A DNA stretch of 64,000 nt from a bacterium (GTDB lineage: Bacteria > Patescibacteriota > Minisyncoccia > Phycocordibacterales > UBA9973). A model generated the notes under the pieces. It had not been told where the DNA came from. It did not search any database and saw only the letters and a program-made list of their open reading frames with translations. Location of the stretch: contig JBBCGN010000001.1 of NCBI GenBank assembly GCA_037200905.1, positions 244,795 to 308,794 on the forward strand. The letters run 5' to 3'. Both the position numbers and the translations under genes were made by a program. The stretch's first letter is position 1. Every line of letters starts with the position of its first letter. Positions 3,022 through 56,948 of the stretch are shown piece after piece.

Positions 3022-3025
3022 AATT

Positions 3026-3306: not shown

Positions 3307-3481
3307 ATAACGTTATTTGATTCTAACACACCATGCTCTGCAGATAATGGACGTTATGCACAGCATGGTGGAGCTAGAATCGCTTGCTATTAATCTCGAC
3401 CTCCTGTATTATGAATATATACCCATAACAAAAAGAAGTCAATTGTGGAAAACTTTTATGAATAATTACCCTATATAATAT

Positions 3482-22734: not shown

Positions 22735-24816
22735 TTATTGCCCATTGGCTACCGCCATGCTCATCGTTCCGAAAAAACCCGTTCCCCGAGTGAGGTGTAT
22801 CGGACGCAAGATAACGGAAGCGTTGGCCTCCTGGAACTTGATGAGCGCCGCTTCGGTAGCAGGGCCAAAATAATGGGTCTCGTTAGCAAGAGAACCCGGC
22901 AGGGGCGACGGCGCCACCGCAAAGCCATGGGCATTGAGGTATTGCTGCAGATGGTAGACATCCGTATCGGTCATCCCCCGTCGCAGAGTCTTAGTGAAGA
23001 GGTATGCAGGAGACTCGGGCAAAATGACAGGCACGGATGAAGCCGGCGTCACAGTGCGCGCCCTGCCTCCTCCGCTTCCCCCGCTCGAATGCGAAGAGGA
23101 GCGCCGCGGTTCGGACTCGAGCGCAATGGTGACGGAATCTTCCGCCGTACCTCCCGGACCCGTGCATGAGAGCGTGAAAGTGCTCTCTGAATCAAGGGCG
23201 GCAGTAGTCTCCGTGCCGGCTGACGGCTTAGCGCCGCTCCAATCTTCCGAGGCAGTACAGGTGCCGTCATAGAGGTTGGCGACGGACCACGTGAGTTCGG
23301 CGGTGCCGCCACTTGGGACCGTATCGTGATCCGCGGTAAAAGTAATTACCGGAGCGATGGGGTCGCCGACGGTAATAGAGGCATCTTCTTCCGCCGTTCC
23401 TCCGGGGCCGGTACAGGAAAGCGTGAATGTGCTGTCTCCTGTCAGGTTCTCGACCGTTTCCGTGCCGCTTGAGGCTTTGGAGCCGGACCAGTCGCCGCTC
23501 GCAGTGCAGGAATCAACATATCCTGTAACATTCCATGAGAGTTCAACGGATCCGTCGTACGCTACGGTGTCGGAATCAGCAGAGAATGCAATAGCAGGAG
23601 CCGCAAAGCCGAGGCGGACAACAGCGCCCGTGGTAGTGCCGTTGTATGTAGTAAATGCTCCTCCCGCAAGCACATTGTCGTCGGGATCGATAAGAAGCGC
23701 ATTCAAAGTACTATTAAATCCGCTACCCGCATCGAACATATCATCGCGCGTCCCATCGGCATTGAGGCTGACGATCCTATTAGTGGTAGTGGCGTTAAAC
23801 GACGTGAAGCTGCCGCCGACGAGAATCTTGCCGTTGCCGTCGACCGCGATGGAGGACACGATGTTATTGCCAAACCCTGTTCCAGGATTGAAGCTCCCAT
23901 CGACCGAGCCGTCAGCATTCAAGCGGATGATCCTGTTTGCCGTCGTGCTGCCATACAACGTGAAGCTGCCGCCGACGAGAATCTTGCCATCATCAAGAGT
24001 GATGGCTCGCACGGTTCCGCCAGTTCCGCCGATGCTGAATCCGGTCCCCGTGTCAAAATCTTCATCAATCGAACCGTCCGTGTTCAAACGGGCGAGCCTG
24101 TTGGCGGTCGTACCGTCAAATGACGCGAAATCTCCGCCGACAATCACTTTTCCGTCAGATTGGAGTGCGACGGTCCGGACGGTGGCGGCGGCGAATCCTG
24201 TGCCGATATCGAACGACGTATCGAGCGTTCCATCAGCGTTGAGGCGCATGATGCGAGAAGGAGTATCAGCGCCGTACGCTATGAAGTTCCCTCCGACGAT
24301 ATATTTCCCGTCCGGCTGGAGGGCGAGCGCCGTCAGCGTGCTGATGCCGGTGAATAAACTGGTGAACGTCTCGTCGCGGGAGCCGTCGGCGTTGAGGCGA
24401 ACCAGCATGTTGGTAGTAGCGCCGTCGTACGCGCTAAAAGAGCCGCCGACGAGAACCTTGCCGTCTGGCTGGAGTACGAGCGCGAACACCCCTGGGCTTG
24501 CGCCTCCTGAGATGCCAGTGCCAATATCGAAAGTTTCGTCTCGCGAGCCGTCGGCGTTGAGGCGGATGATCCTATTAGCAGCGATGCCCTTATACGAGGT
24601 GAAGGTGCCGCCGACGAGAACCTTGCCGTCTGGCTGGCGGGCTAAGACACTCACGGTGCCAGAAGGGGCGAATCCCGCGCCGGTATTGAAGCTCGCATCG
24701 AGTGTTCCGTCGGATGCGGAGGCATGCAACGGCAAAAAAGAACTCAGTAAAAAGAGAGAAAGTATACTAAAGAAAAAATACTTCTTCATAATACTATATA
24801 AGTATAGTATATTCAT
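22735..24816 (-). CDS. Large secreted protein with delta-60-type repeats, Ig-like domains and a C-terminal PG-binding domain (probable start 24789)
   Basis: About eight repeats of DG(T/S).D.(S/T)F..G.GF....V..(L/I).(L/V)Q.DGK(V/I)LVGG.F. The C-terminus has ..TDVYHLQQYLNAHGF..FGPATEAALIKFQ. Confidence 0.7.
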   Translation of the reverse strand: MNILYLYSIMKKYFFFSILSLFLLSSFLPLHASASDGTLDASFNTGAGFAPSGTVSVLARQPDGKVLVGGTFTSYKGIAANRIIRLNADGSRDETFDIGTGISGGASPGVFALVLQPDGKVLVGGSFSAYDGATTNMLVRLNADGSRDETFTSLFTGISTLTALALQPDGKYIVGGNFIAYGADTPSRIMRLNADGTLDTSFDIGTGFAAATVRTVALQSDGKVIVGGDFASFDGTTANRLARLNTDGSIDEDFDTGTGFSIGGTGGTVRAITLDDGKILVGGSFTLYGSTTANRIIRLNADGSVDGSFNPGTGFGNNIVSSIAVDGNGKILVGGSFTSFNATTTNRIVSLNADGTRDDMFDAGSGFNSTLNALLIDPDDNVLAGGAFTTYNGTTTGAVVRLGFAAPAIAFSADSDTVAYDGSVELSWNVTGYVDSCTASGDWSGSKASSGTETVENLTGDSTFTLSCTGPGGTAEEDASITVGDPIAPVITFTADHDTVPSGGTAELTWSVANLYDGTCTASEDWSGAKPSAGTETTAALDSESTFTLSCTGPGGTAEDSVTIALESEPRRSSSHSSGGSGGGRARTVTPASSVPVILPESPAYLFTKTLRRGMTDTDVYHLQQYLNAHGFAVAPSPLPGSLANETHYFGPATEAALIKFQEANASVILRPIHLTRGTGFFGTMSMAVANGQ

Positions 24817-25065
24817 GTAAAAAATGAAGAGTATGCTCTCTCGAGAGGCAATTATCTCAGCCGTAGGAGAGATACGAATCTATACAATCTTATAGAAACG
24901 TTTTCTAAACGCGTCTCGGGCGCAATAACCTCGCACGACTTGGCTGCAATGTCTGGTCATGAAACTAATCACGCCAGACGTCATAAGGGTATTCTAACAC
25001 TTTCCCGTCTTCCAAACTAACGGCTTTGGGTCTATATATAATATAAGCCCTTTACAGCATAACGA

Positions 25066-25083
25066 TATAATCAAATATTTGAT
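25066..25083 (+). promoter_or_regulatory. -10 box overlapping a perfect 14-bp palindrome (candidate operator)
   Basis: TATAAT at 25066-25071. ATCAAATATTTGAT at 25070-25083 is its own reverse complement and ends 12 nt upstream of the ATG at 25096. Confidence 0.45.
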
Positions 25084-25095
25084 ACAATGTGATAC

Positions 25096-25623
25096 ATGAA
25101 ATTAGGAAGCGATGCAAAGGAACGGCTCAAGCAAATCGTCAGAAACGCGGTAGCGCTCGACCCTATGATTTCCCTTCGAGACCTGCAGGCAGTACTTCTC
25201 CAGAAAGGCATCAAGATCGGCAACCTCAATTCGCTGGCTAGGATCAGGAAAGAACTGACCGAAGATGCGATAGAGGAAATGGACCGGCCACAAGTGCTCA
25301 AGCGGTATGCGGATATGGAGGAACGGATGCGGGTGCTCCGAACGGAGCTATTCAAGATCATCTACCCTGACGGCAAGAGCGGTATGTATCCGAGCTACAG
25401 CGAACAGATCTCTGCGATGAAGATATTGATGGAAAGCGACATCAAGCTCTTCCGAGCCGGACTTGATATGGGTATCTACCGCAAGGACGTGGCTAAAGGA
25501 AAGAAGTATACGAAAGAGGAAGAGTTGGCTATGCGAAATAGGCCATTGAATCCTGAGCACAGAGAAAGTATGTTAAAGGCGTTCAAGAACTTTGGATTGA
25601 TTCCGAAGGATGCGGAGATATAA
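25096..25623 (+). CDS. Hypothetical protein, possible HTH partner/antitoxin of the downstream AbiEii-type gene
   Basis: 175-aa intact ORF. Its stop is 4 nt before the next start. The N-terminal ..ISLRDLQAVLLQKGIKIGNLNSLARIRKEL.. looks HTH-like. I see no resemblance to the AbiEi families. Confidence 0.35.
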   Translation: MKLGSDAKERLKQIVRNAVALDPMISLRDLQAVLLQKGIKIGNLNSLARIRKELTEDAIEEMDRPQVLKRYADMEERMRVLRTELFKIIYPDGKSGMYPSYSEQISAMKILMESDIKLFRAGLDMGIYRKDVAKGKKYTKEEELAMRNRPLNPEHRESMLKAFKNFGLIPKDAEI

Positions 25624-25627
25624 ATAT

Positions 25628-27049
25628 ATGATTTTAAAAGACGAGATTGATCAAAAATCAAAAGAGCAACAAATAACAACCGCTAACGTGCAGCGGGATT
25701 ATCTTTTTGGTTGGCTGTTAAATTATATTTTCACTCAGAGCGAATTGAAGGACTCACTTTTCCTTAAGGGCGGAAACGCACTGAGAAAAGCCTATTTTAT
25801 AAAAACTCGTTTTTCAACCGATCTGGATTTCGGTACTCCAAACGATATTGACCAAGAATTTTTGAAACAAGAGATTGAAAAAGCGTGTCAGTTCGTAAGC
25901 GAGAAAGCTGGTATCGCTTTTGTCCTTGAAAGGAACGACGTAAGGGAAAAGTTCAATTGGAACGAACCGCGCTGGAAAGTTTTTGAGGTAAAAATTTATT
26001 TTAAAGATTTCTATGGAAACTCTGATCACATCACCCTCAAAATCTCTCTCGATGTAACCAGATTTGATAAAACATATCTTGATATACAGGAACGCACGCT
26101 TCTGCATCCCTACTCAGATGTAGCCGAGGTGGCATGCCAAATAAAATGCATGCAACTGGAAGAAGTTTTGGCGACAAAGTTAAAATGCTTGCTACAACGC
26201 GACCATGCGCCAGACCTTTTTGATTTTATATACAGTATCTATTTGAATACAGACATACCGATCAATAAGGCAGACATTCGAAGAGTTTTCCTTCAGCGAA
26301 CAATTTTTGAACGCAGTCCTCTCGTCGCAAAGAATATTCTTCTCAAATTACCATTCGAATACATGAAGGCGGTATGGCTAAAAACGATTATCTGTACACA
26401 AGATATTCTCTTTGAGTTTGATGATGCCTTTGCAAAATTCACTTCTGAAATTGAGGCCTTGTTTGCGGAGGACACAGAGAATCCGTGGCATGACCGCTTT
26501 TTCTTTGAAGCGGACGTACGAAATAAAATTATGAAGGCCGGAAAGGATCAAACTCTTTTGCGTATCGTTTACCAAGGATCGGAAAGACTTGTTGAACCCT
26601 ATTCTTTGAAGTTTCAAGAGAAGAGTGACGGTGCTACAAAAGAGTACCTGTATGTTTGGAATAGAAACGGTGGAAGTAGTCCCAAGCCTGGAATACGAAT
26701 GTTTGTTCCTGAGAATCTGACATCTATAGAAAATACCGAAGAAAAATATGAGCCTCAGTACGAGATAGAATTATGCCGTGCAGGAGAATACCCTGAAGAC
26801 AGATATCTATACGATGTAAAAAAGAAGCGAGAGAAAGAACATAACAAACTGTATAAAGTAAAAGCGCCTCGACAATCTCGACCGACCAGAACGAGAGTGT
26901 CTTCTTTTGGCCCTACTTACGTTTACAAGTGCGGTAACTGCGGAAAACTATCATATCGCAAAACCATGGACGGAACCTTAAAGCCACACAAAAGCAAGAA
27001 TGGTTATTTGTGTTACGGATATGGAATCTACCAGACCACAAAATTTTAG
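25628..27049 (+). CDS. AbiEii/AbiGii-type nucleotidyltransferase (DUF1814) fused to a WYL-like domain and a C-terminal zinc ribbon
   Basis: VQRDYLFGWLLNYIF..LFLKGGNALRKAYF..RFSTDLDF is the DUF1814 signature. LLRIVYQGSERLVEPYSLKF..EYLYVWN..IRMFVPENLTSIE fits the WYL pattern. YKCGNCGK..HKSKNGYLCYGYG is CxxC..H..C. Confidence 0.75.
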   Translation: MILKDEIDQKSKEQQITTANVQRDYLFGWLLNYIFTQSELKDSLFLKGGNALRKAYFIKTRFSTDLDFGTPNDIDQEFLKQEIEKACQFVSEKAGIAFVLERNDVREKFNWNEPRWKVFEVKIYFKDFYGNSDHITLKISLDVTRFDKTYLDIQERTLLHPYSDVAEVACQIKCMQLEEVLATKLKCLLQRDHAPDLFDFIYSIYLNTDIPINKADIRRVFLQRTIFERSPLVAKNILLKLPFEYMKAVWLKTIICTQDILFEFDDAFAKFTSEIEALFAEDTENPWHDRFFFEADVRNKIMKAGKDQTLLRIVYQGSERLVEPYSLKFQEKSDGATKEYLYVWNRNGGSSPKPGIRMFVPENLTSIENTEEKYEPQYEIELCRAGEYPEDRYLYDVKKKREKEHNKLYKVKAPRQSRPTRTRVSSFGPTYVYKCGNCGKLSYRKTMDGTLKPHKSKNGYLCYGYGIYQTTKF

Positions 27050-27057
27050 ACTCCATT

Positions 27058-27130
27058 CGACCGTTTATAGCTTAACTTCCTTCTTTAAAATTGTGTAGTT
27101 GACTTGTTAGCTATATTGCTCCGTAAATCT
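27058..27130. repeat. Left copy of a ~72-bp direct repeat flanking the ABC/TrmB cassette
   Basis: cgaccgtttatagCTTAACTTCCTTCTTTAAAaTTGTGTAGTTGACTTgttagctatattGCTCCGTAaaTCTC, compared with 30477..30548. The 35-bp core has one mismatch. Confidence 0.85.
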
Positions 27131-27803
27131 CTTTACGCAATTGATTAAATTCCTCGGTAAATTTAATTTCTGGATTTCGTGGTCTTGGAAACGGAACGAT
27201 GAATTCTTTTGTAAAACCCGTCGGATGAAGAACCAATACTCGGTCAGCTAAAAATAGTGCTTCCTCAATATTGTGAGTAACAAAAATGACTGTCTTTTTG
27301 TGCGTGGTCCACACATCCAACAACCACTTCTGCATTTTATCTCTGGTATACGCGTCAAGCGCTCCGTATGGTTCGTCCATAAGAAGAACATCTGTGTTGT
27401 GAGCAAGTGAACGCGCAATAGCAACTCGCTGAACTTGTCCCCCAGATAGCTCGTCAGGGTACGCGTCCGCTTTGTCTTCCAGTTCTGCAAGCTTGAGGTG
27501 TTCATTTACCATTGCACAATTGTCTTTTGTATCACCTTTCAATCCGAAAGCTATATTTTCGGAAACTGTCAGCCATGGGAAGGCGGCATAATTTTGGAAA
27601 ACCATTCCAATGTTTCCAGACAAAGAGACCTCTCCTTGATACGGAATGAAATTCGCAAGAGCATGAAGCAAGCTACTTTTACCACTTCCAGATTTACCGA
27701 CAATCGCTACAAATTCTCCTTTGCTCACTTCGAAGGAAACATTCTCAAGTGCAGAGTGGTTCTTGTAACTTACATTTAGATTTTTGACAGTTATCTGGTT
27801 CAT
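27111..27803 (-). CDS. ABC transporter ATP-binding protein (nitrate/sulfonate/taurine NitT-type)
   Basis: GKSGSGKSSLL (Walker A), LSGGQVQRVAIARSL (signature), VLLMDEPYGALD (Walker B). Confidence 0.85.
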   Translation of the reverse strand: MNQITVKNLNVSYKNHSALENVSFEVSKGEFVAIVGKSGSGKSSLLHALANFIPYQGEVSLSGNIGMVFQNYAAFPWLTVSENIAFGLKGDTKDNCAMVNEHLKLAELEDKADAYPDELSGGQVQRVAIARSLAHNTDVLLMDEPYGALDAYTRDKMQKWLLDVWTTHKKTVIFVTHNIEEALFLADRVLVLHPTGFTKEFIVPFPRPRNPEIKFTEEFNQLRKEIYGAI

Positions 27804-28555
27804 TTTTGTGAAAGAGTTAGCCATGGAAAGATTCGGCGAGTAGCCAACACAAAGAGTTGATCGGTAACAGCGCCGAGCGTCCCTAGAACAACTAATGCCG
27901 CTATCATTTCATCAATCCGGTACGAAAGAGATGATATTGAGATTCGATATCCAATACCGCTTGAGGCTCCTGACAGTTCAGACACGAAGACCATTACAAA
28001 CCCGATTGCGATAGCTGTTCGAATACCGGAAATAATGAAAGGAAGACTTGCAGGAAAAATTACTTCCCGAAACATCTTGAAACGAGACAAAGCAAAAAGT
28101 CTTGCGCTCCACAAGAACGTCTGCGGTATTTGTTGGGCGCCGATATATGCACCAATCCATACTGGGAAAAAGACAGCGAATGCTATGGAAAATATCTTTG
28201 CGCCATCATCAATACCAAACCAAACAATAATGAGTGGGATAATGGCTACAGGAGGCAACGGCCTAAGTATCTGAATGATAGGGTTTATTGCCTTTGCTAT
28301 GGACTTTATACGGCCTGTAACTAAACCGGTACAAATACCGATAACTGAACCGAGAGTCAGCCCGACTACAAGTCTCCAAAGACTGTCTCTGAAATCATAA
28401 AAGACAGTACCGGATATAATCATTTCCCAAAGAGCTATGGCAACTTTTGATGGTGGCGGAAATAAAGCAGGATTAACAAAACCACTACGAGATACTAATT
28501 CCCACAGTATACATACTGAAATAATTGGAAGAATAAACCATAGGAATTTTTTCAT
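27800..28555 (-). CDS. ABC transporter permease (NitT/TauT family)
   Basis: 251 aa, six TM segments, BPD_transp_1-like ..FREVIFPASLPFIISGIRTAIAIGF.. Confidence 0.8.
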   Translation of the reverse strand: MKKFLWFILPIISVCILWELVSRSGFVNPALFPPPSKVAIALWEMIISGTVFYDFRDSLWRLVVGLTLGSVIGICTGLVTGRIKSIAKAINPIIQILRPLPPVAIIPLIIVWFGIDDGAKIFSIAFAVFFPVWIGAYIGAQQIPQTFLWSARLFALSRFKMFREVIFPASLPFIISGIRTAIAIGFVMVFVSELSGASSGIGYRISISSLSYRIDEMIAALVVLGTLGAVTDQLFVLATRRIFPWLTLSQK

Positions 28556-28571
28556 GGGTCATGAGATTGCT

Positions 28572-29591
28572 TTAAATACCAACTGCTCCCGAAGAAATCT
28601 TTTTGAGCGGAGCACTGTAGATAACATCCTGGAAATTTGGAATTACAGTATCTTTAGTTACTTTACCGCTATCTTTAGCCCACTGTGCTTCTCGATTCAA
28701 GTATTCGAGCAATTGAGGAGTAAGAGCGATGCGGAAATCAAAACTACCCCAGATTCCATCGACTGTTTCCTTGTCGAGTTTTGTGTATTTCATCACTACA
28801 GCTTTTGCTTCCTCTGGATTGTTCTTGGTAAACTTTTCTGCTTCAACAAGTCCTTTCAATAGTTTTTCAAGTGTTGCAGGATTTTCTTTAACAGACTCTT
28901 TTGCTTCTATGACATAAAGTTCTGAATAAATACTCGCGTCAGTGAAAGTGATGGATTTATCACCAAGCTGCTTTTCAGCTATGTACGCGAATGGATCAAA
29001 TACTGCAATAGCATCTACACTTCCACTTATTAGAGCAGCCGGCATATCCTTTGGCGCCTGACTCACGATTTCAACTTGGTCTTTGGAAATACCGAGCTTG
29101 TTCAAAAATTCATAGGTAAAGAATTCCGGCCCACCACCAATAGACGTAGCTATCTTTCGCTTCTTTGCTTTGAAGTATTGATCAGAAGTCTCGAGTCCTG
29201 CTTCTTTGCGCGCAACAACTCGTACTTCATTCTGAGTCTTGCCAACTACTTGCGCAGGCACAACAAATTTATTTCCCTGAAGGGAGGCAAGAGTTACTGG
29301 AACATCACCAGAAATTGAAAAATCCAAAGATCCTCCGAGAAATGCTTCGAGGGCAAACTTACCAGCAGTAAATTCCTTGAGCTCAACATTAAGTCCCTCT
29401 TTTTCAAAAAAGCCTTTGTCTTTTGCCACCATGACCAAGGCCATAGCAGGAGAGGTTTGAATTCCCACTGTTACATGTTCCAGTTCTTTGGGCTGCTTTA
29501 ATCTGGCATGCCAAGCAAATAACCCACCTATTAAGGCAAGGATGATAATGGTCCACAAAATATTTTTTGATGTTTTTGACATATACACCAC
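28572..29591 (-). CDS. ABC transporter substrate-binding protein (NMT1/SsuA-like; probable start 29582)
   Basis: N-terminal anchor, then ..VTVGIQTSPAMALVMVAKDKGFFEKEGLNVELKEFTAGKFALEAFLGGSLDF.. Confidence 0.75.
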   Translation of the reverse strand: MVYMSKTSKNILWTIIILALIGGLFAWHARLKQPKELEHVTVGIQTSPAMALVMVAKDKGFFEKEGLNVELKEFTAGKFALEAFLGGSLDFSISGDVPVTLASLQGNKFVVPAQVVGKTQNEVRVVARKEAGLETSDQYFKAKKRKIATSIGGGPEFFTYEFLNKLGISKDQVEIVSQAPKDMPAALISGSVDAIAVFDPFAYIAEKQLGDKSITFTDASIYSELYVIEAKESVKENPATLEKLLKGLVEAEKFTKNNPEEAKAVVMKYTKLDKETVDGIWGSFDFRIALTPQLLEYLNREAQWAKDSGKVTKDTVIPNFQDVIYSAPLKKISSGAVGI

Positions 29592-29670
29592 AATCTACAG
29601 TTTTGGTAAAGTATTGTAAACACTGTTGTACATTATTGACAACATAAACCGACTTTGATAGCATGAGGAT

Positions 29671-30489
29671 ATGATTGAAGACATACTCAAAAAGCTTGAT
29701 TTGCGCGACGAGGAAATAAAGGCCTTCCTTTTCCTTCTGGAGAACGGACCTCAAACGGCTGGCAATCTAGCTAAAAAGACCGGCCTATCCCGCCCTTCCC
29801 TATATGGGTTCATGCGCAAACTCCAAAAAATGGAGCTAGTTATTGAATCTCAGAAAAACGGCATCAAGACTTTCACAGCAAGTTCAAAAGAAAAAGTTTC
29901 TAGCCTTTTCGATGAGAAAATACAAGAACTAGAGCAAGGCAAGCTCTCAATCGAAAAAGTCTACAGCGAAATCCTCAAAACCGGAGCGACTATCAGTCCG
30001 AAGTTTCAATTATTTGAAGGCAAAGATGGAATGAAGCTCGTACTCAAAGACATGCTTATGTATCGAGACATTGAGACGAAATCATATTGGCCTATAAAAG
30101 CCATGATTGAAATTCTCTCTGAAGATTTTTTCAAAACATTAAATAAGGAGCGTATCCAGCGAAAACTTACGACTCGAGCAATCTGGCCCCAGAACCAAGT
30201 CGTGGATATAAAAAAATACCCTTATCTTGGGACTGGAGAGAAATTTCTCCGAGAAATCCGTGTAGCACCGAAAGATATTGGTTTCTCTATGGGTTACTGG
30301 ATATACGGAAATAAAGTTGCTTTTATTTCTTCCAAGAAAGAAGCTTTCGGATTTATTATCGAGAGTAAGGAGCTCGTTGAAATGCTCTCTTCTCAGTTTG
30401 AAGTCATGTGGAAACTTTCACGTCCCATAAAAGCAAAAGAGAGTGATTCCGCAGAATTTTTAAAAGAACTAAAAAACGACCGTTCGTAA
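29671..30489 (+). CDS. TrmB family transcriptional regulator
   Basis: LDLRDEEIKAFLFLLENGPQTAGNLAKKTGLSRPSLYGFMRKLQKMELV is a TrmB-type wHTH. Transcribed divergently from the ABC operon. Confidence 0.75.
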   Translation: MIEDILKKLDLRDEEIKAFLFLLENGPQTAGNLAKKTGLSRPSLYGFMRKLQKMELVIESQKNGIKTFTASSKEKVSSLFDEKIQELEQGKLSIEKVYSEILKTGATISPKFQLFEGKDGMKLVLKDMLMYRDIETKSYWPIKAMIEILSEDFFKTLNKERIQRKLTTRAIWPQNQVVDIKKYPYLGTGEKFLREIRVAPKDIGFSMGYWIYGNKVAFISSKKEAFGFIIESKELVEMLSSQFEVMWKLSRPIKAKESDSAEFLKELKNDRS

Positions 30490-30548
30490 CTTAACTTCCT
30501 TCTTTAAATTTGTGTAGTTGACTTATATCTTATTCTGCTCCGTATCTC
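30477..30548. repeat. Right copy of the ~72-bp direct repeat
   Basis: cgaccgttcgtaaCTTAACTTCCTTCTTTAAAtTTGTGTAGTTGACTTatatcttattctGCTCCGTATCTC. It overlaps the TrmB stop codon and precedes the recombinase gene. Confidence 0.85.
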
Positions 30549-30592
30549 GTTATTCACTAGACTTCGCACGTTGTTCCGGTATGTTCGTGTGT

Positions 30593-31924
30593 ATGGAACA
30601 AATAGCACCATATGGAGCTCAAATAGGCATACCTCCAGTATTGCAGACAGAGCCAGTCAGATACTGTTTATATGCCCGTAAATCGAGCGAGGCAGAAGAA
30701 AAGCAAGCACTCTCAATTGATTCTCAAGTAAAGGAGATGCTCGATATCGCTCAAAAAGATAATCTGAACGTTACCGATATGTACCGCGAATCTCACTCGG
30801 CAAAAGATTGCGGACAGAGACCAGTTTTCAATAAATTACTTCTTGATATCCGTGAGGGTAAATTCGATGGCGTCCTCGTTTGGCATCCAGACCGCCTCTC
30901 TCGAAACGCTGGTGACCTCGGCGCTATAGTCGATTTGCTTGACCAGAAAAAATTGATTGAGATACGGACATATAGCCAGCGCTTTACCAATAATCCAAAT
31001 GAGAAATTCCTTTTGATGATTCTCGGATCACAAGCAAAACTCGAAAATGACAACAAGAGCATCAATGTGAAGCGTGGATTACGAACTCGAGTTGAAAGTG
31101 GTCTATGGCCCAGCGTTGCTCCTACCGGATATCTTAATCACCCTGATCGAACAATGAAATGCCATGTGATTGTTGATCCATTACGATCGCATGTAATACG
31201 ACTCATTTTTGAGAAAGCGGCCTATGAGAAAATGAGTATCCGAAAACTATTCCGCTGGCTCAAAGAGGACGTCCGATTTACTACGAGACATGGAAAACCA
31301 CTCAGTCTAAGCAATATCCAGCTCATTCTTCGTAATAATTTCTATATGGGACTGATCGAATATCCACGAGGGTCAAGCAAGTGGTACCCTGGCAAACACG
31401 AACGCATAATTAGTGAAGAACTTTTCAAAAAGGTTCAGGAAAAATTGGATGCAAGTAAAAATGGTGAACAACGCACTAAAAAAGAGTTCGCGTTTACCCG
31501 TCTTATGAAATGCGGTATGTGTAAATCCGGAGTGACTGCTGAAGAAAAGTTCAAGAACTTAATTGATGGAAGTGTTGCAAAGTACATTTATTATGGCTGT
31601 ACAAGGTTCAATGATAAAAATTGCAAGAATACTTACCTACGCGAAGATAATCTAATTGAGCAATTGCTCGAGATTGTAGATCGAATTGATATCAATAACG
31701 TAGGCATCAAAAGTAAACTTGAAAAAGAAATCGAACGTTTTGGAGAATTTAGAAGCAAGGTTTTGGGAACCACTGAACAAGAGAAAATCGTACAGACAAA
31801 AATTGATGTACGAAACTATATGAAATACCTACTCCGAGAAGGAACGATTCAAGAAAAGCGAGATTTGATGCAGTCGTTCACGAGTAAGCTCATTTTGATC
31901 AACAAAAGAGTTGTGCTCGAGTAA
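30593..31924 (+). CDS. Large serine recombinase (resolvase domain, recombinase domain, zinc ribbon)
   Basis: YCLYARKSSEAEEKQALSIDSQ (catalytic Ser region), VWHPDRLSRNAGD, ..CGMCKSGVTAEE..YYGCTRFNDKNCKN. Start taken as MEQIAPYG; an alternative start is 30581. Confidence 0.85.
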   Translation: MEQIAPYGAQIGIPPVLQTEPVRYCLYARKSSEAEEKQALSIDSQVKEMLDIAQKDNLNVTDMYRESHSAKDCGQRPVFNKLLLDIREGKFDGVLVWHPDRLSRNAGDLGAIVDLLDQKKLIEIRTYSQRFTNNPNEKFLLMILGSQAKLENDNKSINVKRGLRTRVESGLWPSVAPTGYLNHPDRTMKCHVIVDPLRSHVIRLIFEKAAYEKMSIRKLFRWLKEDVRFTTRHGKPLSLSNIQLILRNNFYMGLIEYPRGSSKWYPGKHERIISEELFKKVQEKLDASKNGEQRTKKEFAFTRLMKCGMCKSGVTAEEKFKNLIDGSVAKYIYYGCTRFNDKNCKNTYLREDNLIEQLLEIVDRIDINNVGIKSKLEKEIERFGEFRSKVLGTTEQEKIVQTKIDVRNYMKYLLREGTIQEKRDLMQSFTSKLILINKRVVLE

Positions 31925-31928
31925 AAAA

Positions 31929-32768
31929 CTATTCTGATTTTACTTCTCCAGATTCAAGCTTAGTAACGATTTCATTCATAGTGTAATGCACAAATTGTTT
32001 TCCAAGCTCAGTTAATTCATATTGTTTATCATCATCAAAAGCAGAGGTAGCATAGCGCACACTACCCGCAGGCTTCGATGTTTTTTTGCTGGGACGTATT
32101 ATTACATTTCCTTGATAATCCCTTTCTTTATGCTGTCTTATTACATGCCCTGTACTTAAATCATGTACGAGTAACTTAAATAAATCTGCTTCGGCCGAAT
32201 CTTCTCGAACAGCTTCACCGTGTATTTGATCCCAAATTTCTTGCCTTGTATAACCTGGATTATTAAATACAACTCTTACAACAGCAAAGTGAGCTTCTGA
32301 ATATATGTCAATCCATGAGACAAACATGCGAACTACATCATCTGAGCAAATTTTAGTAGAAGCCGAATTTGCAAGTAAATTTCTTATCAACTTTCTCTTC
32401 TCTTCGCTTTCTGCCGCAGACCAATCTCGGAAACACTTTTTCACAATCTTTAAATACTCAGGACTTTGCAACCTTTCTCTAATTTTTTCATCGGTTTGAT
32501 CTACACGTGCCATAACTTCCATGATAGTTATGGCAATCTCTTTTATTTCATCCTCTTGTAGTTTAAGCCATGTACCAAATATGTTATTCAAATTTTCTTG
32601 CTCTTTTTCAGACCATGATCCTCCTATGCCACCAATGGCTCCCCCAATAACCGGAATAGCACTTAAACAAGCAAGTGCAAAGCGAGCAGCTTTTGGTCCT
32701 GAACCTGATTCTAAAGCTTCATCAAGTTGTTTTCTTAAGTCACTTTTTTCTTCTTTGTCATCTTTCAT
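31929..32768 (-). CDS. Hypothetical protein with an N-terminal glycine-zipper hydrophobic segment
   Basis: ..AARFALACLSAIPVIGGAIGGIGGSW.. followed by a helical region. It lies 16 nt downstream of the HEPN-like gene on the same strand. Confidence 0.4.
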   Translation of the reverse strand: MKDDKEEKSDLRKQLDEALESGSGPKAARFALACLSAIPVIGGAIGGIGGSWSEKEQENLNNIFGTWLKLQEDEIKEIAITIMEVMARVDQTDEKIRERLQSPEYLKIVKKCFRDWSAAESEEKRKLIRNLLANSASTKICSDDVVRMFVSWIDIYSEAHFAVVRVVFNNPGYTRQEIWDQIHGEAVREDSAEADLFKLLVHDLSTGHVIRQHKERDYQGNVIIRPSKKTSKPAGSVRYATSAFDDDKQYELTELGKQFVHYTMNEIVTKLESGEVKSE

Positions 32769-32784
32769 ATTAATTTACTTTAAA

Positions 32785-33576
32785 CTACTTAGAGCTTTTA
32801 TCTGCTAATTTAGCAAGTAAACTTACGAAAGCAATGAACTCTAGAGCCATTTCTGGATCATCTTTTATAATTTTATGTGCACGAGGATTTCTTAAGCCAG
32901 CGACTGCACCCGAGAACATCATCATGAATCCTTTTTGCTCATCAATATCTGAAGTATCTGCAAGAGTATTAAATTTCAATACAGGACTCTTGGAACTAAA
33001 TACAAACTCCATAAGTGCTATTCCGTCTTTATCATCAATCCCACTATTCATTCTCACAAGAGCATTTAATGCTTTAACTGCATCTTCAATCGCGTTGGAA
33101 TAATGCCCATCTTTAAAAAGATTTCCAACTGCTCTTTCAATTGCAGGATGAAGCTCAAGACCCTCATATGCTTTAAGTGTTTTCCCAGATGAAGTTTGCC
33201 CAGCATCCCCAAGTTCTTCTAAAAAGATTGCTTTTATACCCTCAAGTTGTTGCCTAGATTCTGTTACTGATTCACTGACGCTTTGTTTAATTTCTCCAAG
33301 AGTTATATCTGGCCACCAACTACCTGGATTAAGGCTAGTAACACCATGGCGGTATCTTTCATACTCAACCGTATTAGTTCCAAAAATAGAAGCCAGAGTA
33401 GCCTCAAGGGTTTTTTCTAATGTAAGAACTGTGGGATCGCCATATTTAGTGATCGAATTTATATCTAGATTTTCTAGATCTTTGATTCTTCTGTCGATCT
33501 TAGGAATAGCTGCTTGCATCTGTTGAAATGACAAATTAGCTTCTACAGGTTCTGATTTCTTAGGTTTTTGGGACAT
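32785..33576 (-). CDS. TIGR02391 (Hypoth_Ymh)-like protein with an Rx4H HEPN-type motif
   Basis: ELHPAIERAVGNLFKDGHYSNAIEDAVKALNALVR..GFMMMFSGAVAGLRNPRAHK.. The N-terminal ~130 aa look like coiled coil. Confidence 0.65.
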   Translation of the reverse strand: MSQKPKKSEPVEANLSFQQMQAAIPKIDRRIKDLENLDINSITKYGDPTVLTLEKTLEATLASIFGTNTVEYERYRHGVTSLNPGSWWPDITLGEIKQSVSESVTESRQQLEGIKAIFLEELGDAGQTSSGKTLKAYEGLELHPAIERAVGNLFKDGHYSNAIEDAVKALNALVRMNSGIDDKDGIALMEFVFSSKSPVLKFNTLADTSDIDEQKGFMMMFSGAVAGLRNPRAHKIIKDDPEMALEFIAFVSLLAKLADKSSK

Positions 33577-33652
33577 ATATAAATTATACTCTTAATCTTA
33601 ATTTTTAAACGAACAGACCACTTTAGGTCACTGGGTACGAAAAACTAAACTG

Positions 33653-33723
33653 CTGGGAGACTAGGACTCGAACCTAGATAAACAGGACCAGAACCTGTTG
33701 TCCTACCATTAGACGATCTCCCA
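33653..33723 (-). tRNA. tRNA-Gln (anticodon CTG)
   Basis: TGGGAGA TC GTCT AATGGTA GGAC A ACAGG TTCTGGT CCTGT TTAT CTAGG TTCGAGT CCTAG TCTCCCA G. Cloverleaf drawn by hand. No encoded CCA. Confidence 0.85.
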
Positions 33724-33726
33724 ATG

Positions 33727-33963
33727 CTACATCTTCGATCTTAACTCCTTCTTTCCTTTTGCAGTCTTGTAGTACCTTTCTTTACGGAATGCCTCATATT
33801 TATCATCATACGGTTCGAAATATAAAATCTCAAATGGAACACGAGATTTGGTAGATTTTACTTTGCCCGAATTGTGATAATTCAAACGATTTTCTAAAGA
33901 TTCAGTACAACCAATATATTGGTTATCGTCCTTTTTGCTTTTTAAGACATACACGTAATGCAT
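33727..33963 (-). CDS. Small GIY-YIG nuclease family protein
   Basis: MHYVYVLKSKKDDNQYIGCTESLENRLNYHNSGK..R.PFEILYFE..KYEAFRKERYYK. Its stop codon is 3 nt from tRNA-Gln position 1. Confidence 0.8.
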   Translation of the reverse strand: MHYVYVLKSKKDDNQYIGCTESLENRLNYHNSGKVKSTKSRVPFEILYFEPYDDKYEAFRKERYYKTAKGKKELRSKM

Positions 33964-33964
33964 A

Positions 33965-34032
33965 CTGTTGTCCTACATTAGCCTCGCCCGTAGGCTGGAG
34001 CCTTCGGGCTACGGCCGAGGGACGATCTCCCA
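33965..34032 (-). pseudogene. Decayed copy of the tRNA-Gln 5' half, interrupted by a 39-nt GC-rich hairpin
   Basis: Minus strand reads TGGGAGATCGTC[CCTCGGCCGTAGCCCGAAGGCTCCAGCCTACGGGCGAGG]CTAATGTAGGACAACAG, against the intact TGGGAGATCGTCTAATGGTAGGACAACAGG. Confidence 0.8.
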
Positions 34033-34116
34033 ATACCCGTATACATTACTAGAAAACCGGACTTTTTTCAACTTTTGCCATTTTTGACTTTCGGGAATTA
34101 AAGGTATAATAAGCCA

Positions 34117-34377
34117 ATGGTTTGCCCGGTGTCACAAATGGATATTTTCTTCATCATCTCGTCGATCGGGTTCGTCTCGGTGTGGATCTTCGGCACCATC
34201 GTCCTGGTGCGTCTGGCGCGCATCCTGGGCACGTTCCGCCGCATAGCGGACGGGCTCGAGAAGAACATCGAGAACATCGGCGACTCCGCCGAAGAGATGG
34301 TGGAGGACGTGCGCGACAGTACAGCGTACCGCCTGCTGTTCGGCAAGAAGAGGAGGAAGCACAAAAAGAGCGAATAA
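34117..34377 (+). CDS. Small membrane protein (DUF948-like)
   Basis: One N-terminal TM segment and a charged helical tail. TTGACT at 34084 upstream. Confidence 0.45.
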   Translation: MVCPVSQMDIFFIISSIGFVSVWIFGTIVLVRLARILGTFRRIADGLEKNIENIGDSAEEMVEDVRDSTAYRLLFGKKRRKHKKSE

Positions 34378-34460
34378 GTTCTTATTATTAGCAGATTAAA
34401 AGTAATCCAGATGCGTCGCGTTCCTTTTCGACAGTGCGCGACGTGATTTTGCAAAATCAT

Positions 34461-34820
34461 ATGGCAACAAAAAAGAAAGGCATGAGCATGGGCAAGAAAG
34501 TGGCGATAGGCGCAGGAGTGGCGGCAGTCGGCGCGGGAGCGTATTACTTCCTCGGCCCGAAGGGCAAGAAGCACCAGAAGGACGCGAAGGCATGGGCTAC
34601 GACGGCCGAGAAGAAATTCATGACGGAAGTCGGCAAGGCGGAAAAAGTACTGACCGGCAAGGCCAAAGCCGTCGCGGGAAAGGCCATGAAGATGGAAAAG
34701 AAGATCGTTGCCAAGGCCAAGAAAGTGCAGGCCAAAGTCACGAACAAGGCGAAGGCCGCGGTCAAGAAGGCTGCCGGCAAAGTAGCGAAGAAAGCTACGA
34801 AGATCGCCAAAAAGAAATAA
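34461..34820 (+). CDS. Lys/Ala-rich small protein with an N-terminal glycine-rich anchor (YtxH-like)
   Basis: MATKKKGMSMGKKVAIGAGVAAVGAGAYYFLG, then KA-rich repeats. Confidence 0.45.
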   Translation: MATKKKGMSMGKKVAIGAGVAAVGAGAYYFLGPKGKKHQKDAKAWATTAEKKFMTEVGKAEKVLTGKAKAVAGKAMKMEKKIVAKAKKVQAKVTNKAKAAVKKAAGKVAKKATKIAKKK

Positions 34821-34829
34821 TCGAAATGG

Positions 34830-34877
34830 AAAGGCAAATAAAAATCCCGCAGTCTGCGGGATTTTTATTTGCCTTTT
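34830..34877. terminator. Long bidirectional terminator palindrome
   Basis: aaaggcaaataaaaatcccgcag-t-ctgcgggatttttatttgccttt. The right arm overlaps the pyrG stop codon. Confidence 0.8.
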
Positions 34878-36520
34878 TGCTTGATGCAGGCTTTGACGAA
34901 TGCCGTGAAGAGCGGATGCGGACGGAGCGGGCGGGCCAAGAATTCCGGATGGAACTGCGTGCCGAGGAAGAACGGATGCACTTTCTTCGGCAGCTCGGCG
35001 ATCTCCATCAGATGGCCGTCAGGAGAGCGGCCGGAGAACACCAGTCCCTTGGCCTCGAGATCGGCCACATAGGCCGGATTGACCTCGTAGCGATGCCTGT
35101 GGCGCTCGGTAACGACTTTCTCGCCGTACGCAGTACGAGCGATGGTCCCTTCGCGCAAAGTGGCCTTATAAGCGCCAAGACGCATACTGCCGCCATAGCG
35201 ATTGTTAGCCAAGACATCCTTTTGGGACTCCATGACGTCGATGACGATATTCTTCGAGCTCGGGTTCACTTCCCTGGTATTGGCGTCCCGGAGGCCGAGA
35301 ACGTCGCGGGCGTATTCGATGACGATCATCTGCATGCCGTAGCATAGGCCGAAATACGGGATCTTGTTCTCGCGGGCATACTTCACTACCTTCAGCTTGC
35401 CTTCGACGCCGCGGGTGCCGAAGCCTCCGGGCACGATGATGCCGTCGTATTTCTTCAAATCTTTGAGCTTGTTCGGATCCTTCTCGAAATCCACGGAATT
35501 GAGCCATGAGATGACCGGCTTCTTGTTCTGCGCGTATGCGGAATACTTGATAGCCTCGATGACGGAAAGGTACGAGTCGGAAAGCACGAAGTCACCTGTC
35601 TCGAAGTATTTGCCTACCATGGCGATGGAGATAGTTTCTTTGCCGTTATGGGAATGCTTGGTAAAGGCTTTCCATGCGTTCCAATTCTTCTGGTCCGGCT
35701 TCTTGCAGGCGACGCCGAGAATGTCGCAGAGCTTGTCGGAGAGGCCTTCTTTCTCGAAATTGATCGGGATGTCATAGATGCTCTCTACGTCCGGCGCGGA
35801 CACCACTCGGTCCGGCGGCATGTTGCAGAAGAGCGAGAGTTTTTCCTTGCGCTTTACGTCGAGGCTCGTCGTAGCGCGGGCGATCATGATGTCGGGCTGG
35901 ATGCCGGAAGCGTTCAAGGCTCGCACGGCGTGCTGGGTCGGCTTGGTCTTCATCTCTCCGACCGTGCCCGGCGTCGGCAGATAGGAAACCATGACGAACG
36001 CCACGTCTTTCGGGCGCTCGAGCTTCATCATGCGGCCAGCCTCGAGGAAGAGCATGTTCTGATACTCGCCGATGGTGCCGCCGATCTCGATGACCACGAC
36101 GTCCGCCTTGGCCTTCTTCCCCGCTTCCTTGATGCGATGGATGACTTCCATCGGGATATGCGGCACCACTTCCACGCACTTGCCGCCGTATTCGAGATTG
36201 CGCTCCCGCTCGATGACCCTCTGATAGACGCGGCCGGTAGTCATATAGTTCACGCGGGTGAGGTTGAGATCCAGGAAGCGCTCATAGTTGCCCATGTCCT
36301 GGTCGCACTCGTCGCCGTCGCCCAAAACAAAAACCTCACCGTGCTCGGTGGGGTTCATAGTGCCTGCGTCGACGTTGATGTAGGGATCGATCTTGATAGC
36401 GGTAACATTGAGTCCGCGATTCTTGAGGATGAGGCCGAGCGAGGAGGATGTTATGCCTTTCCCTACTCCGGAAATGACGCCTCCCACTATGAATATGTAT
36501 TTCGTTTCTTGCTTGGCCAT
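34865..36520 (-). CDS. pyrG: CTP synthase
   Basis: KYIFIVGGVISGVGKGITSSSLG..GLCYGMQM..RHRHRYEVN. Intact 551 aa. Confidence 0.95.
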   Translation of the reverse strand: MAKQETKYIFIVGGVISGVGKGITSSSLGLILKNRGLNVTAIKIDPYINVDAGTMNPTEHGEVFVLGDGDECDQDMGNYERFLDLNLTRVNYMTTGRVYQRVIERERNLEYGGKCVEVVPHIPMEVIHRIKEAGKKAKADVVVIEIGGTIGEYQNMLFLEAGRMMKLERPKDVAFVMVSYLPTPGTVGEMKTKPTQHAVRALNASGIQPDIMIARATTSLDVKRKEKLSLFCNMPPDRVVSAPDVESIYDIPINFEKEGLSDKLCDILGVACKKPDQKNWNAWKAFTKHSHNGKETISIAMVGKYFETGDFVLSDSYLSVIEAIKYSAYAQNKKPVISWLNSVDFEKDPNKLKDLKKYDGIIVPGGFGTRGVEGKLKVVKYARENKIPYFGLCYGMQMIVIEYARDVLGLRDANTREVNPSSKNIVIDVMESQKDVLANNRYGGSMRLGAYKATLREGTIARTAYGEKVVTERHRHRYEVNPAYVADLEAKGLVFSGRSPDGHLMEIAELPKKVHPFFLGTQFHPEFLARPLRPHPLFTAFVKACIKQKGK

Positions 36521-36565
36521 TCTGATGACTCTGTTACTGGTGACGTTCCATTATACCACTCTCGA

Positions 36566-37483
36566 TCATCTGTTCAAGTATTTCCGGACGGCGAGGAAGG
36601 AAGAGAACACGCCGAGGAGCACGCCGGAGACGAGGATGATGAGCATGATCTGGAAAAGGTTCGAGACATAGTACTGGTAGAGGTCGAGGCCGAGGAAAGC
36701 CGTCATGTGGTGGCCGAACCAGGAGGTCACGGGCCAGAGGACGAGCAGGGTGATGACCGTGGCGATGGCCCCGTAGATCACGCCCTCGATGAGGAACGGG
36801 CCGCGGACGCGCATCTTGGATGCCCCCACGAGGCGCATGACGCCGATCTCTTCCTTGGAGATGAAGATGGTCAGGCGGATGGTGTTGAAGGTGATGATGA
36901 CGGAAATGACGATCAGGAGGAGCGTCAGCAGGTAGCCGAGGCGGTTGGCCCCGGCGATGATCGAGTCGAGGCGCTCGATGACGAGCTTGTTCTGGTAATA
37001 ATTGATCTTGTCGATGATGGAGGCCGAACCGAGCACCATGGCATTGTCGGATTTCATGAAATTTGCGATGCTCTCGTACTGCGACACTTCCTTGGCCTTG
37101 ACGTTCAAGTAGGCGCCGAGCGGGTTCTCCCCTATCTCGTCGAGGGCCTGGATGGTCGGATAGTCGTCAGAATGCCTCTCTCGGAACAGGTCGAGGGCCT
37201 CGTCGGCGCTGGTATAGGTGACGCTCGCCACCTCGGGCAGCTTCTCGAGCGAGCCCTTCAGGGCCATGATCTTGTCCTCGGAGGTGCCGACGTTGAAGTA
37301 GATGGTGACGTCGACCTTGTTCTTGATCTGGTCGAGCGAGAAGTGCAGCACCGCCTGCAGGAGGATGATGGTGGAGATGACGAAGAGCGTGATGGTGACC
37401 ACGAGCACCGCCGCCCACGAGGTGATGCCGCTCCGGCGGAAGTTGATGAAACCTGATTTGATTATTCTTCGCAATATGCTCAT
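36566..37483 (-). CDS. ftsX: Cell division permease-like protein FtsX
   Basis: 305 aa. TM1, an extracellular domain, then three C-terminal TM segments. Downstream of ftsE. Confidence 0.85.
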   Translation of the reverse strand: MSILRRIIKSGFINFRRSGITSWAAVLVVTITLFVISTIILLQAVLHFSLDQIKNKVDVTIYFNVGTSEDKIMALKGSLEKLPEVASVTYTSADEALDLFRERHSDDYPTIQALDEIGENPLGAYLNVKAKEVSQYESIANFMKSDNAMVLGSASIIDKINYYQNKLVIERLDSIIAGANRLGYLLTLLLIVISVIITFNTIRLTIFISKEEIGVMRLVGASKMRVRGPFLIEGVIYGAIATVITLLVLWPVTSWFGHHMTAFLGLDLYQYYVSNLFQIMLIILVSGVLLGVFSSFLAVRKYLNR

Positions 37484-37574
37484 AGTGATTGATTATAACA
37501 ACAAACGAGGAGCATAAACAAGATCGCTTGTTTGATGTCCGAGTGCCGTTGTTATATGGTACTCCATATAACAA

Positions 37575-38255
37575 CTACATCATGTATTTGCCGGCCTTGT
37601 CGTCGCGGACTATCTTGCCCTTTTCCATGGTGATGACGCGCTTGCCGACGGACTCCACGACACCGCGATTGTGGGTGGTCAGAATGACTGTCGTGCCAAG
37701 ATCATTGATCTTTTTAAGAATCTGGACGATTTCGTAGGTATTGACCGGATCGAGGTTGCCGGTCGGCTCGTCGGCGATGATGAGCTCGGGCTGGTTGATG
37801 ATGGCGCGGGCGATGGCCAGGCGCTGCTGCTCGCCGCCCGACATCTGATGCGGAAAATGATGGGCTCGAGGGGCGAGATTCACCAGTTCGAGCACGTGCG
37901 GCACGTCAGTCTTGATCTCCTTGTCGGTCTTGCCGACCGCTTCCATGGCGAAAGCGATATTCTCATAGGCGGTCTTGTTCGGCAGGAGCTTGAAGTCCTG
38001 GAAAATGGCGCCGATGCGGCGGCGGAGCTTGGTCAGATTCTCGTTCTTCACTTTGTGCACGTTGATAGACTCGAAAAAGACCGTGCCATTGGACGGACTT
38101 TCGTCGGCAAGGATCATTTTGATGAGAGTGGACTTCCCGGCTCCGGAATGGCCCACGATAGAAACGAATTCCCCCGCAGTGACCGTAAATGTGACATCAT
38201 CGAGCGCCAGAAGGTCTTTGTTATACAGCTTTGAAACATTGTTGAAATAAATCAC
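37575..38255 (-). CDS. ftsE: Cell division ATP-binding protein FtsE
   Basis: [37 protein letters not shown]. Confidence 0.9.
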
Positions 38256-56037: not shown

Positions 56038-56110
56038 TTTAGCTAAAAGAATGATAAGAACTGCTCGGCATAAATATGCTTTGCAGTCCTATATTTTTTA
56101 ACGTAAAATA

Positions 56111-56924: not shown

Positions 56925-56948
56925 AACTTCTGATCGCGGTTAGATGGG

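Follow-up and report, generated by a model that had tools for sequence, protein, structure and literature searches.

Within a 64,000-nucleotide (nt) stretch of a patescibacterial genome (contig JBBCGN010000001.1 of GenBank assembly GCA_037200905.1; hereafter the window), a four-gene cassette encoding an ABC importer and a TrmB-family regulator lies between two direct repeats of about 70 base pairs (bp), directly upstream of a gene for a large serine recombinase (LSR). We consider it probable that the repeats are paralogous copies of a block that marks the cargo point of LSR-bearing islands, and that an operon was captured there long ago, most likely through LSR recombination at a short core within the block. 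The genomes of bacteria of the candidate phyla radiation (CPR) are very small, and how genes enter and leave them is poorly known. The module of recombinase and site adjoins tRNA-Gln in hundreds of species and, as unrelated defence systems and, here, a nutrient importer swap at one nucleotide-precise point in the loci examined, it would be a major route of gene flow in CPR. Its interest rises sharply if LSR-dependent movement of cassettes at the core holds: should the LSR act on the site, this would be a natural cassette system run by a single serine recombinase, with a roughly 70-bp site of interest for genome engineering; should it not, the locus would still be a clean cargo hot spot with a boundary element under strong selection.

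A repeat pair around a transporter cassette

The two site copies, the cassette between them and the recombinase gene are arranged as follows.

27058..27131, plus strand: left (distal) site copy, from repeat search, profile and junction analysis
27058-27070: left copy, relic of the 3' end of a DUF5681 gene, CGACCGTTTATAG
27071-27083: left copy, motif A, CTTAACTTCCTTC, with a spacer after it
27091-27098: left copy, motif B, TTGTGTAG
27099-27105: left copy, core 'o', TTGACTT
27106-27125: left copy, C-like part, GTTAGCTATATTGCTCCGTA, continuing into the clipped ATPase 3' end
27111..27824, minus strand: ABC ATPase, SsuB/TauB-like (Pfam, NCBIfam)
27800..28555, minus strand: ABC permease, SsuC/TauC-like (Pfam, NCBIfam)
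28572..29591, minus strand: substrate-binding protein, NMT1/SsuA family (Pfam, NCBIfam)
29671..30489, plus strand: TrmB-family regulator, divergent from the ABC operon (Pfam)
30477..30549, plus strand: right (proximal) site copy, from repeat search, profile and consensus alignment
30477-30489: right copy, CGACCGTTCGTAA, source of the last TrmB codons and stop
30490-30502: right copy, motif A
30510-30517: right copy, motif B
30518-30524: right copy, core 'o', TTGACTT
30525-30549: right copy, motif C, ATATCTTATTCTGCTCCGTATCTCG
30550..30592, plus strand: single-copy rest of the block, up to the recombinase start, from alignments
30557-30566: motif D, CTAGACTTCG
30575-30589: motif E, TCCGGTATGTTCGTG, containing the recombinase ATG at 30581
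30581..31924, plus strand: LSR (Pfam, NCBIfam)

The repeat search paired 27058-27125 with 30477-30544 as direct repeats of 68 nt with 84% ungapped identity at a spacing of 3419 nt and, when two small gaps are allowed, the similarity extends to about 27131 and 30549. The copies differ at 11 of the 68 positions, and their longest stretch of perfect identity is 19 nt. A 35-nt core, CTTAACTTCCTTCTTTAAAWTTGTGTAGTTGACTT, occurs exactly twice in the window (27071-27105 and 30490-30524), one mismatch apart, and found no match in 100 dinucleotide-preserving shuffles, even with three mismatches allowed. Both copies are also supported by an nhmmer profile of the site, with E = 9e-12 to 1e-17 for the left copy. 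In an independent Logan assembly of SRR28211700, one contig of 13,170 bp matches positions 24608-37777 with 100% identity and includes both copies, so that the structure is not the product of one assembler, and the 11 differences are not what a collapsed or duplicated assembly repeat would show. Repeat search, shuffles and second assembly thus bear out the repeats of about 72 bp, with a 35-bp core carrying one mismatch, that a preliminary description of this DNA had reported. Local alignment and profile search found no third copy in the window; an A-like candidate inside a GIY-YIG gene (33733-33762) scored 30 against a null 95% level of 27, was missed by the profile and was put down to chance.

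The positions of the copies relative to the genes likewise agree with that description. The left copy extends over the stop codon and the final codons of the ABC ATPase gene (open reading frame 27111-27824, minus strand), and the right copy starts in the last four codons of TrmB and ends 33-37 nt 5' of the recombinase ATG. Pfam supports the gene identities here and in the preceding module (AbiEii; ABC_tran; BPD_transp_1; NMT1 substrate-binding protein; TrmB; Resolvase, Recombinase and Zn_ribbon_recom), and NCBIfam places the transporter as an SsuABC/TauABC-like, sulfonate-type ABC importer. As the intergenic region between the substrate-binding protein and TrmB has good matches to divergent promoter consensus sequences, the cassette appears to be an autonomous, regulated operon. 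Many CPR genomes encode a TrmB homologue together with this ABC operon, which is an ordinary chromosomal operon in CPR. Its ends in the three kinds of context found are these (an asterisk denotes a stop codon).

L167-L169: plain chromosomal context, no recombinase; ATPase end ..QIFESLSHTNSEPLPK, full length; TrmB end ..FLKEIF, full length
L165/L166: intact operon directly 3' of a more distant LSR, followed by tRNA-Trp; both ends natural
Window: cassette between two site copies; ATPase end ..LRKEIY + GAI*; TrmB end ..FLKEL + KNDRS*
L164 (TrmB 94% identical in amino acids): position as in the window; ATPase end ..LRKEIY + RVI*; TrmB end ..FLKEI + HR*

In the window, the natural C-terminus of the ATPase has been swapped for three site-derived codons, and the natural end of TrmB for KNDRS*, encoded by the left edge of the site. 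Since the same ends are intact in L167-L169 and are clipped and fused to site sequence here, the four genes represent an insertion into the site. The window and L164 are only 74.7% identical at the nucleotide level over 4 kb yet share the same clipped junctions, which one old capture explains; judged from this divergence, the event is not recent. The proximal copy of L164 has no A-B, its TrmB reading ...CAT CGT TAA directly before TTGACTT.... Because motif A (TTAACTTCC) and the core (TTGACTTCC) contain similar 9-10-mers and the relic CGTTAA is kept, L164 would have lost A-B by a deletion between A and the core and, if so, the duplicated state is older than the split between the two loci. On that reading, the near-identical 35-nt cores, set against 25% coding divergence since that split, point to selection or conversion on both copies.

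A conserved block upstream of recombinase genes

The LSR gene is intact and encodes 447 amino acids (aa) with, in this order, PF00239 (E = 3e-25), PF07508 (1e-15) and PF13408 (1e-6), the domain architecture that defines serine integrases. It matches the PHROG integrase family phrog_95 (1e-70) and has relatives in PDB among the SprA/YokA, TP901-1 and A118 integrases. The nearest named families are CcrB, XisF and CcrC, with CcrB as the best NCBIfam match (E = 2.7e-43, 148.5 bits against a cut-off of 900) and CcrC at 73.9 bits (cut-off 900). The family is very large in Patescibacteria, with at least 8000 homologues, down to about 66% identity among the matches listed.

We fetched 80 genome and 80 metagenome loci around recombinase homologues. 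The repeat sequence recurs directly 5' of the homologous LSR gene in L010, L017, L029, L012, L008, L084, L108 and L170, and the recombinases of these site-bearing relatives are 63-81% identical to that of the window. The core therefore does lie next to related recombinases in other genomes, 5' of many LSR homologues, where the preliminary description had proposed to look for it. Intact sites follow the consensus TTA.CTTCcTTc...AAtTTGTGTAGTTGACTt.t.c.c.cTTCTGCTCcGT.T.tCg.Tattca.CTAGACTTcGta.g...ttcCGGTATGTTCGTg; its left part consists of TTA.CTTCcTTc (A) ... AAtTTGTGTAG (B) and TTGACTt.t.c.c.c (core 'o'), and its right part of TTCTGCTCcGT.T.tCg (C),.Tattca.CTAGACTTcGta (D) ... and ttcCGGTATGTTCGTg (E, with the start codon). 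About 70 bp of this block are repeated here, and the full block, up to the recombinase start codon, measures about 115 bp.

A profile of A-B-o found 30 copies in the window and 162 loci, all 30 upstream of the recombinase and on its strand, at positions -27 to -7069. The left edge of the block, CGA(C/A)C, lies about 13 nt before A and is common to five different upstream contexts; in L006, L012, L016, L088, L122, L164 and L225, A-B stands directly 3' of a DUF5681 gene. A direct 8-10-mer with (A/G)ACTTC is common to A, o and D. Alignments of about 40 of the 160 loci show the D-E part 5' of almost all recombinase homologues, to identities as low as about 57%, and the segment 30550-30592 probably includes the promoter or leader of the recombinase gene.

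Among loci with a recombinase at least 60% identical and enough upstream sequence, three layouts can be told apart: a single intact proximal block with variable genes to its left (6 loci), a distal-only block split at the core (15 loci) and cargo between two copies that contain A-B (3 loci: the window, L088 and L012). Relatives with one intact site and no insert at that point are L010, L017, L029, L008, L084, L108 and L170; in the last of these, the AbiEii module also found in the window is followed by HSP70-like and helix-turn-helix (HTH) cargo and then by a single intact block. Together, the recombinase-linked site, the relatives with no insert at that point, those with quite different cargo there and the clipped gene ends uphold the part of the earlier proposal by which the cassette was gained through this sequence.

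In the split loci the break falls at the short core (TTGACTT / GTTATCC), and the cargo is unrelated from locus to locus and consists mostly of defence genes. Examples of cargo across the loci are subtilase with an AAA ATPase, DUF2130 with GmrSD/HNH, a LexA-fused C5 methylase, an Mrr-like nuclease and, in L170, the HSP70-like and HTH genes. In split loci A-B-core is found 1.5-7.8 kb upstream, in many cases directly behind a DUF5681 gene; the cargo is almost always on the minus strand, with its 3' end adjoining the distal site, and is followed by core-(C)-D-E-recombinase. The cargo is bracketed by an imperfect core repeat of 7-27 nt, and within a locus the distal and proximal copies vary together in the form of their core (GTTATCCCC, GTTACCAAC or TTGACT). 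L088 and L012 have a distal copy of a short core type (GTTATCCCC) and a proximal copy of a long type (TTGACTT with C). The two copies in each thus belong to different site lineages, a pattern that speaks for a joining of modules from different elements and not for duplication in situ. The proximal relic of a small-gene end in L012 does not match the distal small gene of that same locus.

The other end of the recombinase gene shows a border of its own. Across about 45 closest loci homology ends at the recombinase stop codon (31924-31929 in the window), and in about 13 gene-mapped loci the stop is overlapped, or approached to within a few nucleotides, by the end of a minus-strand cargo gene that differs between loci; the recombinase 3' end is a second position for cargo.

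Upstream of more distant family members (L036, L038, L045, L165 and L224) lie genes for a methyltransferase, a small-terminase-like protein and a large terminase (phrog_38, E = 1e-78), and the closer family keeps only the small DUF5681 gene. Judged from these terminase genes, the recombinase family probably has its origin in phage-like elements or is still part of them. The idea that A-B derives from the 3' end of the large-terminase subunit gene was considered and dropped, as reading the sequences revealed no similarity. INPHARED contained no match to the site, and 27 exact 16-mer matches in IMG/VR, where the profile match is limited to the 16-mer itself, were attributed to chance.

Mechanism, rivals and known analogues

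The data establish that the site is conserved and fixed in position and orientation, that cargo varies at one point of it, that short core repeats flank cargo in relatives, that the gene ends at the junctions are clipped and that the event is old. The capture can be pictured as follows. The block, conserved non-coding and putatively protein-recognised DNA, would mark the cargo-insertion point directly 5' of the LSR gene, and an ordinary CPR operon, the SsuABC-like importer with TrmB, would have been captured into this point. The target segment (CGACC, motifs A and B, core TTGACTT and most of C) would thereby have been duplicated on both sides and the last codons of the outer genes clipped, both copies of the block having been conserved since this old capture. 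The adjacent LSR would recombine at core 'o' (GTAGT-TG-ACTTC, a short imperfect palindrome), the partners being the resident site and a site-bearing module, either incoming or neighbouring, in a way that may resemble how Ccr recombinases build SCC and ECC arrays. On this picture the LSR may bind and cut the site, and the cassette may still be mobile. More tentatively, and with clearly less confidence, the LSR and its 5' block may form a gene-capture platform akin to integrons and SCC, in which one LSR and a site of about 70-115 bp insert and excise multi-gene cargo at the TTGACTT / GTTATCC core and mobilise recombinase-less modules in trans.

Several observations weigh against LSR recombination at the core. 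Serine integrases act on att sites of about 40-50 bp that are imperfect palindromes around a 2-bp crossover, and the canonical enzymes need only that 2-bp core to be shared; canonical LSR attL and attR do not have 70 bp in common. Here the consensus contains only an imperfect palindrome of about 16 bp around TG (GTGTAGT-TG-ACTTCTC), and no extended dyad symmetry was seen by eye across the 73-nt block. Only 24 of the 66 loci in the closer recombinase family yielded motifs A-B. The split loci keep the right half of the distal core whatever the cargo, and do not keep the left flank of the proximal core, a pattern that is odd for symmetrical half-site recognition. The mixed lineages in L088 and L012 fit a fusion of two elements as well as they fit cassette integration. 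The island has its own chromosomal junctions elsewhere, so that this internal site does not serve as the att site for its integration.

Signs of excision, which the preliminary description had considered possible, were sought in the reachable assemblies. A cassette-free junction would read ...CAGACCACAAAATTTTAG-ACTCCATT-CGACCGTT[A-B-TTGACTT]ATATCTTATTCTGCTCCGTATCTCGTTATTCACTAGACTT, from AbiEii to the recombinase through one site, and a circle junction would join the TrmB end through one site to GTTAGCTATATTGCTCCGTAAATCTC, the ATPase end. Neither junction was found, which also counts against the LSR. Exact-protein look-ups of AbiEii, TrmB and the recombinase led to nothing but the source contig and its Logan counterpart, and relatives of AbiEii stood in unrelated contexts with no site.

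It is rather unlikely, in our assessment, that the duplication arose by homologous or illegitimate recombination between two related block-bearing islands, in tandem or in one cell, with no role for a recombinase. A deletion or unequal crossover would then have fused [left module - block - cargo] to [block - recombinase], an outcome for which we see the same low chance. The different core types of the copies in L088 and L012 and the mismatched relic in L012 speak for such an event, as do module borders at stop codons (AbiEii against L170, and after the recombinase stop in all loci), which are typical of mosaic exchange under selection. In L165/L166 the cassette directly follows the recombinase gene, so that deleting this gene would put a block beside the ATPase end, and L224 has a second recombinase-type module downstream, that is, tandem elements. 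However, several independent deletions would all have had to end at CGA(C/A)C (window left and right, L088, L012 and L010), a longest perfect identity of 19 nt is a poor substrate for RecA, and such fusions leave unexplained why some 15 unrelated cargos break at the same short core with a repeat on both sides.

Quite improbable is a purely regulatory block, which would control the recombinase gene as its promoter, operator or leader or act as a pac-like binding array for a small-terminase-like DUF5681 protein, the duplication being a by-product of cargo shuffling. The conservation of D-E to about 57% identity and its overlap with the start codon favour such a function, and for D-E alone a regulatory role is plausible; TAGACT-N16-TATGTT, 7 nt before the ATG, may be read as a promoter, the recurrence of (A/G)ACTTC in A, o and D resembles an array of binding sites, and A-B directly follows DUF5681 in seven loci, where more distant relatives carry TerS and TerL genes. 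But next to the left copy lies the 3' end of a convergent gene, which offers a promoter or operator no obvious target, and the core of this copy is still conserved. A scan with the σ70 consensus gave one weak match in the left copy (9/12, at 27064-27091), in a region with fewer matches than shuffles, and no match from the start of the right copy to the ATG; neither copy matched the terminator consensus. IMG/VR held only distant relatives of the recombinase, and A-B was absent from all viral contigs that carry them. Nor does a regulatory block account for cargo that always breaks at the core and is flanked by core repeats. A structured RNA was rejected as well: fold z-scores for both copies on both strands (-0.50, +2.23, -0.25 and +0.11) are no better than those of shuffles, and Rfam had 0 matches at E<=1 in 26900-30700 and none at the gathering threshold.

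An assembly artefact or chance similarity, the former raised in the preliminary description and conceivable for a metagenome-assembled genome, has a negligible probability and is excluded as far as assembly goes by the Logan contig and the 11 of 68 differences, given that an independent assembler produced the identical 13-kb structure, the copies are 84% and not 100% identical, shuffles lead one to expect none by chance, and homologous two-copy or split layouts occur in unrelated samples (L164, L088 and L012).

In the literature that we searched there was no described serine-recombinase element from CPR and nothing on the function of DUF5681. By analogy, the locus would work most like an SCC/ECC array or an integron platform, with the SCC and ECC cassette chromosomes as its closest analogue. 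These Ccr elements have direct-repeat att sites of about 50 bp, cassettes that lack ccr and composite arrays (PMC6222049, PMC12648241). The locus shares with them an LSR of the same broad clade (CcrB being its best NCBIfam match), cargo-rich islands of highly variable content, and tandem or composite arrays; it resembles them in part in carrying a recombinase-less cassette between direct repeats that are tens of bp long and have a conserved motif at their centre. It differs in having a single recombinase gene, related to but not orthologous with ccr, in place of a ccrAB pair; in adjoining tRNA-Gln, with no rlmH (orfX) beside the island; in a repeat that lacks the TATCATAA motif and has TTGACTT / GTTATCC at its centre; in a site that lies immediately 5' of the recombinase gene and co-evolves with it, inside the island and not at the ends of the element; and in its host, a member of the Patescibacteria.

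Integrons (intI-attI with attC) likewise have their insertion site directly 5' of the recombinase gene, cargo mostly divergent from that gene, short core repeats at the cargo borders (here GTTGACT / GTTATCC) and a predominance of accessory or defence genes. Unlike IntI, a tyrosine recombinase, the sole recombinase of the island is a serine enzyme; the copies contain neither a folded attC-like element nor an inverted repeat and fold no better than shuffles; and the cargo comprises multi-gene operons with their own promoters, usually one unit per locus. The res sites of Tn3/gamma-delta resemble the block in being sites of about 115 bp directly 5' of a serine recombinase gene and overlapping its control region, and in that two direct sites bracketing DNA make a natural deletion substrate; the 447-aa LSR with Recombinase and Zn-ribbon domains is, however, no small resolvase, the island has no transposase, and three inverted-repeat subsites are not recognisable.

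Defence hot spots of phages and satellites (P2/P4-type) occupy a fixed backbone position at which unrelated defence systems swap, with borders at gene ends. Fixed position, swapped cargo and gene-end borders are found here too, but the border is a conserved non-coding block, and a short core is repeated on both sides of the cargo. This combination suggests a site-specific step and not homology of the flanks alone.

The surrounding island

The cassette is one module of a larger low-GC island of about 9 kb beside tRNA-Gln, the neighbours of which are a DUF5122/PG-binding gene on one side and tRNA-Gln/pyrG on the other. Its further features are as follows.

24938..33723: low-GC genomic island, with low GC to about 34.0 kb; GC 0.37-0.43 against about 0.52-0.58 in the flanks
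24938-25050: conserved non-coding left-end element of the island
25096..27049, plus strand: upstream island module (175-aa gene and AbiEii)
25096-25623, plus strand: protein of no recognised family, 175 aa
25610-27049, plus strand: long AbiEii toxin-family protein (Pfam)
31929-32768, minus strand: Abi_alpha-like cargo gene
32785-33576, minus strand: Hypoth_Ymh cargo gene
33652-33723, minus strand: tRNA-Gln(CTG), right end of the island

Two assignments of the site to the ends of the island were rejected. The pair cannot be the island's own attL and attR, as both copies lie inside it, with the conserved ends at 24938-25050 and tRNA-Gln; and A-B-o-C-D-E does not qualify as the island attP, as no A-B occurs in the 10 kb downstream of the recombinase and the island ends elsewhere.

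The upstream module is 87% identical to that of L170 at the nucleotide level, and the homology ends exactly at the AbiEii stop codon. The AbiEii-family protein has about 470-480 aa, of which a C-terminal extension of about 240 aa ends in a Cys-rich, zinc-ribbon-like motif; this long form has more than 1000 homologues in many contexts, including the inside of type I restriction-modification operons (L171). Its 175-aa partner has no match in Pfam, PHROG or NCBIfam.

The left-end element, about 110 nt long (GCTGCAATGTCTGGTC...CCAGACGTCATAAGGGTATTCTAACAC...AACTAACGGCTTTGGGTC), stands 5' of the 175-aa gene, and homologues occur 5' of the first gene in the related islands L010, L031, L012, L016, L170 and L164. 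By eye it forms a hairpin with three compensatory pairs between groups (GTCTGG/CCAGAC versus GCTTA/TGAGC); the RNAalifold consensus is weak and Rfam has no match. Candidate roles are those of a leader RNA, an operator palindrome and an island end or att sequence.

At the right end, tRNA-Gln(CTG) is followed on the minus strand by a 78-aa GIY-YIG gene (33727-33963) and by a duplicated 5' half of the tRNA (33966-34035) that is broken by a GC-rich, hairpin-like insert of 40 nt, the whole spanning 33652-34035; in L014 a GIY-YIG gene likewise adjoins tRNA-Gln. The arrangement looks like a GIY-YIG insertion that duplicated part of tRNA-Gln, or like an island/host junction within the tRNA. In most related loci tRNA-Gln lies 0.1-10 kb 3' of the recombinase gene, often with pyrG and ftsEX beyond it, and 36 nt past the tRNA 3' end (33616-33651) are conserved in several loci, which suggests that this family of islands targets the tRNA region. 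Elsewhere in the window, with its GC of about 0.55, further low-GC patches (0.39-0.44) at 55001-57000, 60001-61000 and 3001-4000, none of which carries the repeat, may be other foreign islands.

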